This document shows, in pieces, positions 18,001 through 24,000 of a DNA stretch of 64,000 nt. The stretch is from an uncultured Parachlamydiaceae bacterium. GTDB taxonomy: Bacteria > Chlamydiota > Chlamydiia > Chlamydiales > Parachlamydiaceae. The stretch's first letter is position 1; each line of letters opens with the position of its first letter. A program made the position numbers. The stretch spans positions 256,001 through 320,000 of the forward strand of contig CAVVXH010000010.1 in the NCBI GenBank assembly GCA_963752155.1. Direction: 5' to 3'.

Positions 18001-21000
18001 CAATATACAGTTTGACTGTGCGGCCAGCTATTTCGATGGTATCTCCGAAGGGGATGAGGATGAAAGCCATCAGGGCAGTAAAAACAGAAATGGCTGGAGC
18101 TAGGATATAAGTAAATTTATCGACATTTTCTGGGCAAAAACTTTCTTTGCTAAGGAGTTTAAGGCCATCGGCAATAGGCTGTAGAAGGCCAAAGGGTCCT
18201 ACTCGATTAGGGCCAAGCCTTAGTTGGACTCTGGCCATAATCACCCGTTCGCAAAAGGTCATATAGGCAGCCGCCCCCATAAGGACCAAAACGAGAAGGA
18301 TGCTTTTGATAAGTACTTCGATTAAATCGCCTAACACGGGATACCTCATTATCCACTTTTATTCATTATTTTGGACGTTAGCGGAAAAGCTTTTGTCTGT
18401 AAATAAAAAAATTCAAAGGGGTGGGGTATTGTGAAATGTAGCAAGGACGACAAGGACGGCAAGGACAACAAGCAAGGACAAGCAACAAAGATATAAGATA
18501 ATACCATTTCTCGTTTATTTTATATGTCCTTGCTTGCCGTCCTTGTTGTCCTTTTCGTCCTTGCTGTCCTTGTTAGTTCTTTTCTTTAATACGATTAAGT
18601 TCTCTATAGAACGCATCAAGTTCGACATCTTCATCGTTTTCAGAAGCTGGAAATTGCTTTGAGATTAATTGTTCTCTCTTAGAATTTAGATAATTCAGAG
18701 CGTTTTTAATAGGGTCTTTTACACTATCAATTTCATTATTAACGTTCCAAGAATCACAATAAAGCTCTATGCTTCCATTAGCTAAAATATATAAATCAGT
18801 AATTTCTTTGGGTAGCCGAGTTAAAAAGCCTGGAGATTGATGAGTCCATTGATCCATCAAATCTAAGAGTTCTGCATCCAAAGCATGCAATTCCTCAATG
18901 CTGCAACCACTCTTAGAATTGGTTAATTCGACGATTTGATGCGCGATGATGCGAAATTGAGATTTAATTTCTTCTAGATGATCCTCCTTTTCAAGATAAG
19001 CACGCATTTCTGGAATTTCAGTATCAACTTCCTCAATAGAAGAATCGTTATTAAGTTTATCTTGAAAATCGGTATTTAACCAATCATTAAAACTTTCATC
19101 ATTAAAACTTTCATCATCTTCAAAAAAGGAGTCTGATTCATAGCCATCCTCTAAAATTCCCTCGTTTGAATTTTCGATCTCGCAAGCCGGAGATAGATGT
19201 TTATTTTCTAAAGACTGATTTTTTTCATAGTTCGCCATGAATTGTTGTGCTTTTTTGAAGTATTTCTGGGCTTTAATTAAATCATGATCCCTATCAGGCT
19301 GATTGCTTTCTGTAACTGCAAAAGAAGGATTTAATTGCTGAAGGACTTCTTCGGCATCAGAACGAAATTTATCAGAAAGTGCATCGGTTTCTTGGTTTAT
19401 ATTTTCGACATCTGATTGAGCAATATCTTTAAGTGTAGTAACTATATTGCAATCTAGGTACGGATTCAGGCTCTCGTGTGATGGTTTGATATTTATTTTG
19501 GGCTGAATTTGTGGGCGTTCGTACACCTGAAACATTTCAATTTTAAGTAAATTTTCTTCCGTAATTCTTTTTAAGTTAGACTCATTTTTAGAAGATAATG
19601 GATTCTTTATTTCATTTATTTGTTGTCCCATTAGATCTACTTCGATTTTAAGTAATTCTAACTTTTCTTGTTGTTGATTTGCAGATAAGTTAATGGACGC
19701 ATAAAGAGTATCAATTGCTTCTCCTTGTTTATAAGCTTCTTCTAACAAGTTTTCAACAAATTTATTTTGAAAGAATAGATCAATTTCATTTTCATTTTCT
19801 TTAGAAATTTTTAGAAATGCTGCAATCTTTTCACTAATAGCAGAGGAGGGGAAATTTTTTTGATCGATGTTTTTTGAGAAAACATAATCGATTTTGGTCA
19901 TTTTGAAAGGAATAGATTTGAGTTGTTGCCAGATAGAGTTCAGTTCATTTGTGGCCTCAGGATCGTTTTTTTTAATGAGGGCTTTAATTTTTGAGCTTAG
20001 GATGAATTGATTTTGAAGTAAATTTTCTATAACCGAAGGTAATTTCCTCGCATTGATTTGTGAAGTTGTTTGGGGGTCCGCTTCTGATGTCTGTTTTGAG
20101 TCCAGAACCAAAGCAATCTCCTTTATTTTGCGAGTTTGCACATTGTCAATTCTTATAGAAAAAAAATTTTGATATAAATTTTGGAAAAAATTTAAAGAAA
20201 AAAATGAATAGATCATATAAACACCTCGATTTATTAAATTACATGTAAAAATATTTTTTTTATATTTTAATATTTTTGTTTTTTTATAGGCAATTAAATT
20301 CTATTGTACCTCTTGCGTTTTTCTATTGTCAAGTCAAAAACAGTATTTTAGTGAGAAATTAGATATTAGATAAAATAGAAATGAACTGCAATAAGAGACA
20401 TTGTTTGAATCAATGCGTATTTCTGGTATTTCTGGCAACTTCTCATATAAGTGGACGTTGCATTTTTTTGTAGATGAAACGTTCATCTGGAAATCGTTAT
20501 ATTAGATTGAGTATGTGGACGTAATCAACGATGCAAACGATACAACGATAAAAACGATAAAAACGATATAAACGATAAGAACGATAGGAATGATAGGAAC
20601 GATAGGAACGATACAACGATAAAAACGCTTTTCAAGATTATTTACAAAAGTCTAGACACTCCCACTCCCTACGTCACAATTTCTCATAGACTTCTTCTAG
20701 ACTAGTCGAAAAGTCCTCATTGCTCTGCAGTCTTTTCCATTCCAATTTCCTATGTCGGAAATTTACTAACAAACCGATTTGAAGTTGAGAAGCTTTTAAA
20801 TAGTTGAATAATTGTGCCTGATGTTCGCGAACCAAACTTTCACAACATTTTAATTCCACGATCACGGTTTTTCCTACAACCAGATCTGCGTGATATCGAC
20901 CGATTACTTTGCCTCTAAACATTACTTCAAAAGGTCGTTCTACTTCGACCTCTAGGCCCATCTGTCTCATCGCAATCAATAGCGCATTTTTGTAGACTTT

Positions 21001-24000
21001 TTCCAGAAATCCTGGCCCAAGCTCCTTCATGACCTCAAAACAACAGTTCAGAATGGTGCCCGTCAATTCATGATGAGGTAATTTTTTGTCTTCTTCCATC
21101 GTTCTTATCGTTCCTATCATTCTTATCGTTTTTATCGTTTTTATCGTTCTTATCGTTCTTATCGTTTATATCGTTTTTATCGTTTTTATCGTTCTTATCG
21201 TTCTTATCGTTCTTATCGTTTTTATCGTTTTTATCGTTTTTATCGTTCTTATCGTTCTTATCGTTCTTATCGTTTTTATCGTTTTTATCGTTTTTATCGT
21301 TCTTATCGTTCTTATCGTTTATATCGTTTTTATCGTTCCTATCGTTCTTATCGTTTATACCATTGATCTATAGTTAGTAGCAACAGTCTGAACGGTAGCT
21401 CACTTCACTTTTTCTAGAGCTGTCAAAGGCCTTCACCACTTCACTCCCATAATTAGAAGTTGCTATTGCTATCTCTTGCTATCTCTTCCTATCTCTGTTG
21501 AGAAAAATAAATGGAAACAAAACCCCAAGACAACAAAGCAAAAGAATTGGACTATTTCCAAATCGACTATAAATTGTGGGGTAATGGTATCTCGGAACTT
21601 CGACGTATAGAGCATCGGCAATCCATTGTGATTCCGGCGATGTATCTCCTAACATCGCAATGATTTGCCCAAAACTGTCGCAGGCTGTCGTAATTCCTGT
21701 ATTGCAAGCTCGAACAATAGGGACTCCATTTTCAACGCTACGCAATCTAGCAAGATCGAAATGTTGTTTAGGTAGATTGGAATTGGGGTACCATACATCG
21801 CTCGAAAGATTGACAAGCAGCTCTGCTCCGTTTTGACGGCATTCTCGCATGATATTTCCAAAGGTCTCTTCATAGCAAATAGAAACCCCAAAAGGAATAG
21901 TACTTCCATGGAAAACTGTCGCTTCGGTTCCGAAAGTTAAAGATCCTTGAATTCCATATTTTGCTGCCAGGTTGTGGAAGATTGAAAAAGGGATATATTC
22001 AGCCATCGGAAGTAAGATCCGTTTAGCATAGTGTGGAGAGGCAGCATAAACAGACTCATCTGTTGAATTGGGTTTAAAATGGATCGCTGCACTATAATGT
22101 TGTGCCTTGGCATTTTCATCTTGAATAACATTTTCTAGACCAGCGATGACTTCAGACTGAAAGATATTGGCAACGGCTTGTGCCCAGAAAGCATTATTAA
22201 CGAACCATCTATTTCCTTGATTTGAGATAGATTGACGAGCAAATGGCTCTTGTAGGGGAGGAAACTTTTGTTTAACAGATTCACCGTAAGTTGCGGTAAT
22301 CGCTTTTTCTACCTCTTCATAGGGATAGATAGGTAAATAGGTTGCAAAAGGAACGACGTATTCGGGCAAAGCAATCAGGTCAATATTCTTTTCACGATAA
22401 GGGTGTAAAATTTTAAAAATTTGAGCCCACTCGTCTATGACGTAATCGACATACTGCGATCTCGTATCAAAGACTAGAGCCTCTTCCGCTGGAAAAGCTG
22501 TTTGCACTAACAGAGTTCTATAAGGATTCGACGGTTCTTGAATGGGGTAATGAAAATGAAATATTCCAAATAGATAAGGGAATGCAGCGAGCGATATCCA
22601 TGCGACTAAGTTCTTTTTACTTTGGTAAAACCAAGCTCTTAATCCCATCATATTTACAAGAATAACCCAGAAAGAAAGTAAATAGATTCCTCCAATGGAA
22701 GCTAATTGCATTGAATAAAGATGATTGGTTAGGGCAATTCCTGCGGGATTCCAGGTATATCCTGAGAGAAAATAGAGTCGACTCCATTCAAACAAAGTCC
22801 ACAAAGAGGCTAAAGCGATCGCTTGAGAGATTTTTTGAAGTCGTTCAGGTTTAATAAAAATAGACAACACCCCCCATTGCATTCCCCATAAAATGCAAAA
22901 CAACGCATAGACAAAATAGATATAATTGAAAGGGTGATACAGTAGCCATTTAAGTTGTATCGCTTGTACCGCGAGGAACCATAGTGTCCCTATTAAAAAG
23001 CGCTGTTTTGCTGAAGTAATTTCAAGCAAGACTCTGCACATCAGTGCATAGCCGCACAGAGCTGATAGAGTGCTCAACCAAGGAATGCCGGCAGGCTGCC
23101 CATAACTCACAATGACGAAGGAAATAAAGAGCAAAAGGAGCGCTCGGATCATGCCTAATGTTGCCAAAAAATATAAGGGAGTTCTAGAGGTGTTAAATTC
23201 GGCGCATTTGGAACTATACGAGGCGTATAGTAACTAATCGGATAATCAGCAGGGACTTCTGCTTGAAAAATATGCATGTTGGAAGGGTTTATGGATTTCC
23301 CTATTTCTTTCATAATGTAAATTGATGGCATAGAACCTCCATTTTTATAAAGTTCGACTCTTATATCATTAGGATCTATTTTATCTAAAAAGACTTCAAT
23401 ATTAAATCGATAAATGTCACCAAGGTTCTCTGTGCTTATCTTACCAAAGTATAAATTATTCCAGCTTTCATTGATAGTCTTAATTTGTTTTGTAACATTT
23501 CCACTTAGTCGATTTTGATAAAGCTGAGCTGCAGGAAGATAGTATTTTTCAGTATACTCACGTACACAACGATTACTTGAAAAATAGGGGGTAAGTTCGG
23601 CCATGCTAGATCGGATACGTTTAACCCAATCAACTGGGATGTTTTCCCCATTTCGCGTATAAAAAGAGGGGATGACTTCGTTCTCTAACAAAGTGTAAAG
23701 GGCATCTGCATCTTGGGCATCGCGAGCTTGTTCATCGATTCCCTTCCCATTGTGAGATTGGCCGATTGCCCAACCGACTTGAGGTGAATAGGCTTCAGCC
23801 CACCAGCCGTCAGGGATAGATAAATTGAGCCCTCCATTGACAAGAACTTTCATTCCACTTGTTCCGCAAGCTTCCCAAGGGCGTAGAGGGGTATTAATCC
23901 AGACGTCGACTCCTTGCACTAATTCTTTGGACAAGAGCATGTTGTAATCGCTCAAGAAAATAACATGAGGGGATACTTCAGGCCGTTTAATAAATTCGGA

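Follow-up and report, generated by a model that had tools for sequence, protein, structure and literature searches.

Positions 20525 to 21366 of the window, the stretch of 64,000 nucleotides analysed here (contig CAVVXH010000010.1 of an uncultured Parachlamydiaceae bacterium), hold an intact gene for a GxxExxY / PD-(D/E)XK nuclease of 141 aa, flanked by inverted arrays of the 9-mer AACGATARG. With confidence that is evenly balanced, we interpret this locus as the one intact gene-bearing copy, in this genome, of compact selfish cassettes that form a chlamydial lineage and whose ends are read by the nuclease between them. Our data support the more general view that the design, a GxxExxY gene with inverted repeat ends, is a discrete cassette widespread across many bacterial phyla. 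We found no paper describing this bracketed design, which apparently has not yet been described in print. It looks like a selfish DNA cassette in which the repeats are putative recognition sites of the nuclease itself.

The bracketing of the gene by inverted arrays, proposed in a preliminary description, was confirmed by TRF, by the ORF and by profile matches (Table 1). TRF found a 9-nt period in both arrays, with 11.4 copies on the A side (20527-20627) and 28.7 copies on the B side (21098-21355, opposite strand), the latter also having a 45-nt higher-order period (5.8 copies). The start codon of the gene (ATG, 21097-21099) lies inside the innermost B-side unit; the outermost B-side unit is TCAATGGTATAA, of the TCAACGGT type. 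The A-side TCAACGAT is the terminal unit of the family, and the TCAACGRT start was also seen in 25 anchored metagenome elements. The extra module at the A-side spacer is absent from close relatives: in soil-metagenome contigs, about 26 nt from the usual 3′ junction stand in place of window positions 20564-20678; the centre of the locus at C1:91581 holds a similar module. The modules of the A-side outer flank recur in the flanks of C6:153359, C6:243833 and C10:580299, and GTAATCAACGAT, from the same flank, was found at 25 places. A search for a syntenic relative of the window locus found none.

Table 1. Features of the nuclease locus and of a second, gene-less array pair (positions in the window)
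Feature	Position	Strand	Content
A-side outer flank	20440..20524		..TTTTTTTGTAGATGAAACGTTCATCTGG..ATGTGGACGTAA; modules common to flanks of other copies
A-side arm	20525..20628	+	TCAACGAT at 20525-20532, then ~11 AACGATNNN units facing the gene
Spacer, gene stop codon to A-side arm	20629..20673	-	Part of extra module
GxxExxY / PDDEXK_3 gene, 141 aa, product P0001	20674..21099	-	Intact ORF
B-side arm	21097..21366	-	~29 AACGATARG units facing the gene
B-side outer flank	21367..21400		TCTATAGTTAGTAGCAACAGTCTGAACGG; diverged copy, B half of 111-bp module X
Second AACGATARG pair, without gene	2558..2887		+ array (2558-2622), 134-bp palindromic centre of 'Y' type, - array (2757-2887)

The gene product, P0001, matches PF13366 (E 1.2e-39, 135.7 bits, cut-off 22) and TIGR04256 (E 1e-40, 138.7 bits, cut-off 35). 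Both the GxxExxY motif and the D...(D/E)xK catalytic residues are complete (G30, E33, Y36, D72, E82, K84); across 50 sequences G30, E33, D72 and K84 are invariant, while Y36 and E82 are at least 90% conserved. The AlphaFold2 model (pLDDT 92.5, topology HHEEEHEEH) predicts a restriction-endonuclease-like alpha-beta fold. The folds nearest to this model are Cas4, restriction-endonuclease-like proteins and Hjc, none clearly ahead of the rest (Cas4 SSO0001, Z 8.1, rmsd 7.3 over 113 residues; 3ijm, Z 7.9, rmsd 3.4 over 98 residues; Hjc 1gef, Z 6.8, rmsd 3.2 over 85 residues; 4ic1, Foldseek E 2.6e-5). The gene is under purifying selection, with dN/dS of 0.05-0.16 against the eight orthologs with computable dS (0.5 to >3). 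The same genome has two intact genes of another GxxExxY clade (C4:110655 and C6:157328), so the earlier statement that only one near-whole copy exists holds for the AACGAT type and not overall; the arms of the second paralog clade, 33% identical to P0001, consist of GCACAAAGA units. PF05635 has a sole match in this genome, below the cut-off.

When arrays were defined as at least three ACGAT cores spaced 8-10, 18 or 27 nt apart, the genome contained 92 arrays at 45 loci, spanning 17.5 kb. Both orientations are present at 37 of these loci (about 28-29 +/-, 8 -/+ and two mixed); the earlier tally was 84 arrays and 36 pairs (28 and 8) in 16 kb. The arrays are intergenic, as had been claimed: 41 of the 45 loci overlap no ORF of at least 150 aa, and in three of the other four the ORF is a frame reading through the array. 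Gene remains are likewise present, although in 21 of the 37 inverted pairs by blastn and not in 17, and the recurrent module put at 119 bp does exist, with a length of 111 bp (X; complete at 11 loci). Each of its halves is found beside +/- loci (residues 69-111 at 11, 1-26..70 at 6), and the junction AACG-ATG-GAAGAAG is repeated at 15 loci, both as previously described. The pattern (AACGATARG)x4 has 263 matches in this genome (0 for the reversed control) and occurs in one of 72 other genomes of the family; the latter figure was reproduced, whereas the 591 matches first reported were not, probably because a looser pattern had been used.

Conservation was measured on 852 units chosen independently of their own core. 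It is 95-99.5% at positions 1-7 (AACGATA), while position 8 has A in 73% and G in 24% of units and position 9 has G in 71% and A in 29%. Array length ranges from 3 to 51 units, some arrays having higher-order periods. The two arms of an element resemble each other more closely than arms taken from different elements do (mean identity 0.864 versus 0.745; 0 of 5000 permutations reached the observed value). There are about 37 copies in the genome, most of them gene-less or decayed, and one internal deletion junction is common to seven dispersed loci. Inverted repeats belonging to other element families delimit the two largest sub-families, 'D1' (7-9 copies) and '-/+' (8-11 copies). Much of the copy number in this genome stems from two sub-families that multiplied within larger hairpin elements of other kinds, in which many copies are nested. 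The spread of the D1 and -/+ copies, therefore, need not have involved this nuclease.

The build of the element is seen in 80 metagenome relatives, where it takes a compact form: four 8-9-nt units (TCAACGAT...AACG-ATG, start TCAACGRT) make up a terminal inverted repeat of 34 nt, which is followed by the gene and then returns in inverted orientation. As the ends in these relatives have three to five units each, the 10-51-unit arrays of the present genome are a lineage-specific expansion and not, as first thought, the design. Among the 70 relative loci for which 100 nt or more were available on each side, 63 have an inverted-repeat score of at least 15 and 39 have at least two ACGAT cores on both sides. 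The bracket is family-wide: 49 of 76 cross-phylum GxxExxY loci reached this score in comparison with 0 of 135 shifted controls, with arms of tandem ACGCGGAT-type units facing the gene. Two further genomes, G009 and G018, contain many short AACGAT pairs; a close ortholog of the gene was not found in these incomplete assemblies.

We found that the core of the unit shifts with divergence from P0001, from AACGAT to ATGAT and then CAGGAT. Of 72 relatives, those at least 76% identical to P0001 have the ACGAT core in 23 of 25 cases and those of 72-75% identity in 13 of 21; at 66-71% identity the core is ACGAT in 4 of 16, ATGAT in five and AGGAT in four, and at 65% or less it is ACGAT in 0 of 10 and AGGAT in five. 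More distant relatives, 35% and 32% identical, have CACAGAGA and CGCAAAAA units, respectively. The core is also kept in relatives whose synonymous sites are saturated. Our data support its conservation beyond the neutral expectation and its change along the protein clades. This is the pattern expected of binding sites of the encoded protein, as the arrays were proposed to be. Plain co-inheritance, however, would also be expected to give the co-variation, and we count this against our interpretation.

The canonical cassette would then comprise about 0.55 kb. Its terminal repeat has three to five 8-9-nt units in tandem and is followed by a gene for a GxxExxY nuclease of 125-145 aa, with the start codon reaching into the innermost unit, then by a short spacer and by the terminal repeat again, inverted. 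We infer that this nuclease recognises the iterated units at both ends of its cassette and binds them, probably in multimeric form, much as a transposase binds subterminal repeats. It may cut at or near these ends, or at the hairpin or cruciform they can form, and cutting would keep the cassette in the genome and now and then copy it to new intergenic sites. In the present genome, slippage and unequal exchange would have lengthened each arm to 10-51 copies of the 9-nt unit AAGAACGAT, many cassettes being multiplied passively, nested in other hairpin elements. That the genome has only one intact AACGAT-type gene for its roughly 37 copies counts against this scheme, as do the arrays of G009 and G018 without a close ortholog.

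The mobile cassette of the preliminary description stands as a discrete unit of gene and inverted ends with a filled and an empty site in the cross-phylum sample; we saw no target duplication and no evidence of the nuclease-driven movement that it proposed. At that orthologous site, which is flanked by genes for an ABC transporter and a lipoprotein, there is a cassette of 495 bp in G085, a spacer of 65 nt in G129 and an unrelated hairpin without a gene in G120. As for a member of the clade itself, L114 is filled at a place where the two flanking genes lie 8 nt apart in the present genome, at only 25-46% aa identity. The search for paralogous empty sites gave nothing usable, and no base-precise empty site was found. 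Inspection of 20 loci by eye revealed no direct repeat next to the ends, which weighs against our interpretation. The only ORF between the window cassette's ends is the PDDEXK_3 protein, with no DDE, serine, tyrosine or HUH transposase, and we know of no strand-transfer activity for a PD-(D/E)XK protein of 141 aa.

It is possible, if doubtful, that the cassette does not move itself. Other elements would then carry it (an IS630-family insertion sequence in the relatives, nested hairpin elements in this genome), or recombination between arrays would spread it, with the nuclease acting in, for example, addiction, defence or repair and the units serving as an autoregulation operator or having no role for it. 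Indeed, in 30 of the 80 relatives the cassette resides inside an IS630-family element (transposase with DDE_3 plus HTH), always at the same place, between the stop codon of the transposase and the right end of the IS, whose end motif lies beyond the cassette; in 23 of these 30 the transposase ends 37-95 nt upstream on the same strand. This constant place suggests a possible vehicle and long vertical residence. Together with the boundaries of the D1 and -/+ sub-families at the ends of other elements and the lack of a seen target duplication, it favours passive carriage and is counted against self-movement, and the overlap of start codon and innermost unit fits an operator. In contrast, the cassette has its own inverted ends and also occurs without any IS: that transposase was found in 0 of 80 cross-phylum loci, transposase domains in 0 of 60 flanking proteins there, and no such IS in this genome. 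Cross-phylum cassettes occupy unrelated sites within operons and are present or absent at one orthologous site, and an operator does not need the mirrored copy behind the gene.

An unlikely explanation, compatible with the others, is that the arms act in RNA, forming a long transcript stem by which an operon-inserted cassette would be excised or insulated by RNase III, analogous to the intervening sequences of 23S rRNA; tolerance via RNase III would then determine where cassettes survive. Consistent with this, 94 of 109 ORFs flanking 56 cross-phylum loci point in the same direction as the GxxExxY gene, and the two adjacent genes often belong to a single operon. In the window, the genes on either side of the nuclease gene also share its direction, a search upstream of it on its strand gave no consensus promoter, and the strand folds at -127.5 kcal/mol compared with -83.4 ± 5.0 for shuffled sequences (z -8.9, DNA parameters). 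Arm mismatches that keep sense-strand G-U pairs, however, are only mildly in excess (37 versus 23 of 116), the units are kept as a sequence motif, beyond what a mere pairing partner requires, and none of the records listed as holding the stretch is RNA.

We also compared the arrays with REPIN and REP elements and their RAYT (Y1 HUH) transposases, as portrayed by Bertels and Rainey 2011 (PMC3116915, PMC3337134) and Di Nocera et al. 2013 (PMC3733652). Both systems place one small gene between inverted copies of a short repeat, leave many intergenic hairpin-forming copies without a gene, in clusters and nested arrangements, and have a repeat type specific to each gene clade. The genome has two Y1_Tnp genes (C10:596730 and C11:40824), and GTAG, the tag of many REPs (PMC3733652), adjoins both element ends (TGTAGA-TCAACGG). 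It is nevertheless very improbable that the arrays and modules are non-autonomous repeats moved by this RAYT-type tyrosine transposase, and we rejected membership. The RAYT genes are flanked by their own repeats of about 100 bp, distinct from the arrays and the A/B/X/Y modules and found within 300 bp of three array loci; no AACGAT array lies beside either gene; and the bracket around GxxExxY genes also occurs in phyla and loci without a neighbouring transposase. Moreover, the cassette protein is a PD-(D/E)XK nuclease and not an HUH tyrosine enzyme, its arms are tandem 8-9-nt units and not one 20-40-bp palindrome, and its start codon overlaps the arm.

That the arrays are functionless slippage products, beside the gene by chance, is hardly tenable: their varying length and higher-order periods and the near-restriction of the four-unit pattern to this genome fit such an origin, but 37 of 45 loci are paired inversely, a four-unit inverted repeat persists in relatives with saturated synonymous sites, the core stays constant while positions 8-9 vary, and the bracket is family-wide. 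The conserved inverted ends refute growth by slippage alone, which explains the expansion and not the design.

Free-standing homing endonuclease genes include PD-(D/E)XK ones; they are not known to carry inverted ends made of repeat arrays or to give rise to miniature copies that lack the gene. The cassette resembles them as a small selfish nuclease gene between host genes, under strong purifying selection and, at one orthologous site of a cross-phylum member, present or absent, but its sites are many and unrelated, its ends are inverted arrays and gene-less copies exist. By the features of an IS or MITE, it has terminal inverted repeats (about 34 nt), and neither a transposase nor a target-site duplication was found. 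Iterated subterminal sites are known from Tn7 (TnsB sites, with the PD-(D/E)XK nuclease TnsA) and from the hexamers of Ac/Ds. At IS607, several transposase dimers reportedly bind each end (PMC6188088). All these ends, like those of the cassette, are inverted and built from several copies of a short motif, with the would-be reader protein encoded by the element; the cassette differs in having no DDE, serine or tyrosine recombinase, no target duplication seen, and a size of only about 0.55 kb with a 141-aa protein. Pneumococcal BOX elements have an A-Bn-C build. The clam element DTC84 is reported to be a MITE with internal tandem repeats (PMC3879986). Both share with the present family a variable number of tandem sub-units in a modular repeat between fixed end modules, whereas in the cassette it is the inverted ends that consist of tandem units, with the cognate gene between them.

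The GxxExxY gene of the window and the arrays around it represent a real kind of genetic unit, the repeat-ended nuclease cassette; at this site its end units have undergone an extreme local expansion. The gene lies between two inverted arrays, the A and B sides (see the table), and the start codon of its product, P0001, is placed inside the innermost repeat unit (AAGAACG-ATG-GAAGAAGAC). P0001 scored far above the curated cut-offs of both PF13366 (PDDEXK_3; E 1.2e-39) and TIGR04256 (GxxExxY; E 1e-40). When P0001 was aligned with 49 diverse relatives, G30, E33, D72 and K84 proved invariant and Y36 and E82 at least 90% conserved; P0001 has all six residues. 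The predicted fold is restriction-endonuclease-like, according to a confident AlphaFold2 model (pLDDT 92.5). Its closest structural neighbours were Cas4 SSO0001 (Z 8.1), two uncharacterised restriction-endonuclease-like proteins, type II enzymes and Hjc (Z 6.8), none of which stood out among the matches, and a search of solved structures with the P0001 sequence returned nothing meaningful (best E 0.4).

As single-stranded DNA the locus folds with -127.5 kcal/mol, compared with -83.4 ± 5.0 in shuffled sequences. A scan of positions 20200-21600 gave eight promoter-like sites (5.3 ± 1.9 in shuffles), none of them upstream of the P0001 gene on its own strand, and zero terminators; a possible -35/-10 pair seen by eye in the B-side flank was dropped, as the promoter tool makes no such call. 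No RNA record is listed as containing the stretch. Four runs have contigs that match across the gene at 88-99% likeness, the RNA label of two of these runs being a guess. Beyond the B side, the last ~7 residues of an lnt-like gene, past the part that aligns with orthologs, are read from a TTGCTATCTC repeat.

Positions of the features (window positions, the window being G000:C10:256001-320000, unless a contig of the studied genome, G000, or a fetched locus, L, is named)
Feature	Position	Strand	Remarks
A-side array	20525-20628	+	~11 units of AACGATNNN; TRF 11.4 copies, 9-nt period
GxxExxY ORF P0001, 141 aa	20674-21099	-	between the two arrays
B-side array	21097-21366	-	~29 units; TRF 28.7 copies, 9-nt period, 45-nt higher-order period
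TTGCTATCTC x3.1	21466-21496		overlaps final codons of the lnt-like gene
lnt-like gene	21479-23167	-	
Other 9-mer inverted arrays (CAAGGACGA / GTCCTTGTT)	18442-18574, 43386-43542		gaps ~50-70 nt
CTCTGTGAT x2.8, 16 nt, CACAGAGAA x2.8	3603-3668		half copy at 46864-46888
Other-clade GxxExxY genes	G000:C6:156800-158100 (L097), C4:110300-111300 (L098)		GCACAAAGA-type units
~850-bp composite around a -/+ AACGAT structure	G000:C15:118580-119500		~8 similar loci; outer inverted repeats GCAATTCCCGCTAA..TTTCGTGCCCGTGCG, GTGCCCG-type units
Locus with permuted module X flanks	G000:C6:4885-5454		flanks X4-70 and X71-111
RAYT-like Y1_Tnp gene, 341 aa	G000:C10:595500-598300		amid five copies of a ~100-bp repeat
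IS630-family element with cassette	L130:1262-3070		cassette between transposase stop codon and right IS end, as in 29 other metagenome loci
tRNA-like gene (by eye only)	L130 ~1262-1335		GTT anticodon; just upstream of the IS
Second, internally deleted cassette copy	L112, downstream of gene; L004/L099 2060-2290		adjoins an intact cassette
~520-aa ORFs, weak PDDEXK_3 matches	G000:C10:67823, C17:71686, C1:9326, C10:438402, C17:32646		

Using an array rule of our own, which differs slightly from that of the preliminary description, we found 92 AACGATARG arrays in 45 loci of the genome, 41 of which lack any ORF of at least 150 aa. Both orientations occur at 37 loci, ~28-29 of them +/- and 8 -/+. 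The inverted pairs described previously are real, and the figures match save for these small differences of rule. The gene remains reported in pair centres were recovered in 21 of the 37 pairs, the ATG-in-unit junction was seen again at 15 array loci, and the module said to flank +/- loci was found as a 111-bp repeat (module X), full length at 11 loci and as halves flanking +/- loci. Of 72 other genomes in the family, one has the four-unit pattern (AACGATARG)x4, as stated, but we counted 263 occurrences in this genome instead of 591. Across 852 units, taken by a middle-unit count that does not condition a unit on its own core, AACGATA is 95-99.5% conserved and positions 8 and 9 switch between A and G. 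The cassette reading accounts for the whole array span, 17.5 kb of odd intergenic DNA.

The unexpanded form of the cassette is seen in relatives. A search limited to candidates of similar length gave 1363 proteins that match P0001 (E 1e-5 or better), and we sampled 80 metagenome loci of this clade, whose proteins are 50-87% identical to P0001. Flanks of 100 nt or more on each side are available for 70 loci; a clear inverted repeat surrounds the gene at 63 of these 70, and 39 have at least two ACGAT cores per side. The canonical layout is unique DNA, TCAACGRT-NNRAACGAT-ATAACGAT-AWAACG/ATG, gene, ~45 nt, 34 nt inverted, unique DNA, the 34-nt end being TCAACGAT GGAAACGAT ATAACGAT ATAACGAT. In the studied genome, the copies have this same TCAACGAT / TCAACGGT start within both their A and their B ends. 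Since the ends of relatives hold three to five units, the arrays of 10-51 units in the studied genome represent a lineage-peculiar expansion of the inner 9-nt unit. At L112 and L004/L099 the second, deleted copies keep only the first or last part of the gene between the same arms.

Bracketing by inverted repeats extends beyond this clade. A separate sample of 80 loci from many phyla was obtained with a query alignment of nine sequences picked by protein motifs only, and at each locus the 300 nt upstream were aligned to the reverse complement of the 300 nt downstream. The median score was 18.25, versus 9.0 in 135 control windows shifted by 1 kb; a score of 15 was reached by 49 of 76 loci and by 0 of 135 controls. 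The arms are tandem ACGCGGAT / ACGCAGAT / ACGCTGAT units directed at the gene. Flanking ORFs share the orientation of the GxxExxY gene in 94 of 109 cases, and the scan of 60 flanking proteins showed no transposase domain; these are proteins of ordinary kinds, and the two neighbours are frequently halves of a single operon.

Filled and shorter versions of one of these cross-phylum sites were found between ABC-transporter and lipoprotein genes. One genome (G085) carries a 495-bp cassette there with 6 and 15 nt to spare, another (G129) has a 65-nt spacer, and in two more (G122 and G112) the site likewise lacks roughly a cassette's length; in a further genome (G120:C6, L194) the site holds an unrelated ~75-nt gene-less hairpin of GATGAGGCGAAGAGACGGCG / CGTCTCGCCGTCTCATC units. 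The comparison rests on these genomes and takes nothing from three others marked as unpublished. At loci L114/L115 of the P0001 clade the cassette lies between two genes that are 8 nt apart in the studied genome, a coarse comparison at 25-46% amino-acid identity. The window locus has no comparable orthologous empty site, because same-genus genomes are just 66-68% identical in Lnt and differ in gene order; the candidates for paralogous empty sites in the studied genome, paired flank matches, proved to be other nested repeats.

We found that the repeat unit changes with the protein. The ACGAT core is present at 23 of 25 loci whose protein is at least 76% identical to P0001, at 13 of 21 loci at 72-75%, at 4 of 16 at 66-71% (where five others have ATGAT and four AGGAT) and at 0 of 10 at 65% or less (five AGGAT; n=72 in all). 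Likewise, in chlamydial genomes AACGATAT units accompany a 79% ortholog, CAGGAT/CAAGAT units go with 56-63% relatives, and CACAGAGA or CGCAAAAA units with relatives at 32-35% identity. The studied genome itself has, beside GCACAAAGA-type units, two intact genes from another clade that share 67% identity between them but 33% with P0001; the one on contig C6 is enclosed by nested inverted arms, the longest of 53 nt, and the same unit type forms ~25 gene-less hairpins. Comparison of P0001 with eight orthologs that allow dS to be computed gave dN/dS of 0.05-0.16 at dS of 0.5 to more than 3, and synonymous sites were saturated in five further orthologs. The core is kept despite this divergence, indicating that the non-coding ends are under constraint. 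Arm identity is 0.864 within an element versus 0.745 between elements (0 of 5000 permutations), which points to concerted evolution or selection on complementarity. Core constraint, co-variation and arm likeness are what would be expected of cognate binding sites, although co-inheritance alone would also give co-variation. The best-supported inference is that the units are binding sites of the GxxExxY nuclease.

Of the mobile cassette proposed in the preliminary description, the discrete repeat-ended nuclease unit and the repeats as inferred binding sites hold up; the nuclease is at most a candidate for the mover. No target-site duplication was seen in the 20 clade loci read in detail. One internal deletion junction is common to seven dispersed loci of the studied genome, and every copy with it is enclosed by a larger hairpin element, which has GGATAAG arrays and an outer inverted repeat of its own. 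The 8-11 -/+ loci are copies of one ~850-bp composite bounded by a GTGCCCG-unit repeat family, whose outer repeat also flanks several other array loci. Given the shared junction and the larger enclosing elements, copy number in this genome is no count of jumps. Among the clade loci, 30 of 80 have an IS630-family transposase (DDE_3 plus HTH) upstream of the gene; in 23 of these the transposase is on the strand of the gene and stops 37-95 nt short of it, with the IS end motif beyond the cassette, suggesting that the cassette is a long resident of an IS630-family element. Such an element was found at 0 of the 80 cross-phylum loci and nowhere in the studied genome. Moreover, the studied genome has one intact AACGAT-type gene for ~37 copies, and in two other genomes, G009 and G018, whose assemblies are incomplete, short AACGAT pairs are numerous but no close ortholog is present in the assembly. 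Together these observations weaken the reading of a self-mobile nuclease.

The arms have a fixed polarity, from the outer TCAACGRT end through the units to an inner junction with the gene start, the gene end or a palindromic centre (module Y). In module X the right outer flank runs directly into the left one, and at one locus on contig C6 the two parts of the module form the flanks in permuted order; a head-to-tail or circle junction would look like this. Instead of such a junction, module X and the -/+ arrangement may reflect insertion into a palindrome. RAYT genes were rejected as the source of the arrays because different repeats flank them; all that these have in common with three array loci is some intergenic 'graveyards'. 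The ~100-bp repeat beside the RAYT-like gene also occurs less than 300 bp from three AACGAT array loci.

The family concerned (PF13366 / TIGR04256) is very large: clustered at 50% identity, its members that match P0001 within E 0.001 form 14,144 clusters. PDDEXK_3 is given as 'Unknown' in a 2012 superfamily survey (PMC3424549). In the literature searched, subscription journals aside, we found no functional paper on GxxExxY proteins and, under PDDEXK_3 / PF13366, TIGR04256, Parachlamydiaceae repeats, intervening sequences and subterminal repeats, no description of the cassette design; as a kind, it is apparently undescribed in print. With the P0001 locus and its relatives, the family gains a context that is concrete and can be tested: each protein clade has a cognate DNA motif, the unit is defined at 0.55 kb, and gene-less derivatives occur naturally. 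If the protein reads and cuts its own repeat ends, this would be a new way of selfishness for a tiny gene, beside REPIN/RAYT. It would also account for many of the short contigs and assembly breaks seen in metagenomes; most of the 120 listed homologs (of 1363) lie on contigs of 1-3 kb. We put forward, as a tentative and rather unlikely proposal, that GxxExxY proteins are a minimal, new class of nucleases, encoded by the element and binding its ends sequence-specifically, with each clade reading its own 8-9-nt iterated unit. With host repair, they would suffice for excision, copying or homing of a 0.5-kb cassette, both between genes and within operons, in many phyla. Tens of thousands of 'hypothetical' genes would then be an unrecognised mobile-element family, and a natural source of small modules for DNA recognition; module X in the studied genome would be what is left of a circular or tandem intermediate.

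A TRF census of the studied genome gave 122 inverted pairs of arrays of period 6-11, belonging to at least four short-unit families: AACGATARG, CAAGGACNN, CACAAAGR / GCACAAAGA and CTCTGTGAT / CACAGAGAA. Three of the four are present in the window itself. The CAAGGACGA / GTCCTTGTT unit forms ~40 gene-less hairpins genome-wide, and no cognate gene for it was found in this 80%-complete assembly. Five ~520-aa ORFs with weak PDDEXK_3 matches were not counted with the cassette genes. The three inspected have a P-loop motif (..HAPRQSGKT..) at the start; they are probably ATPase-nuclease fusions unrelated to the cassette. The CTCTGTGAT / CACAGAGAA type forms ~20 near-identical hairpins genome-wide, and its unit is akin to the CACAGAGA arms of a GxxExxY gene in the relative G018.
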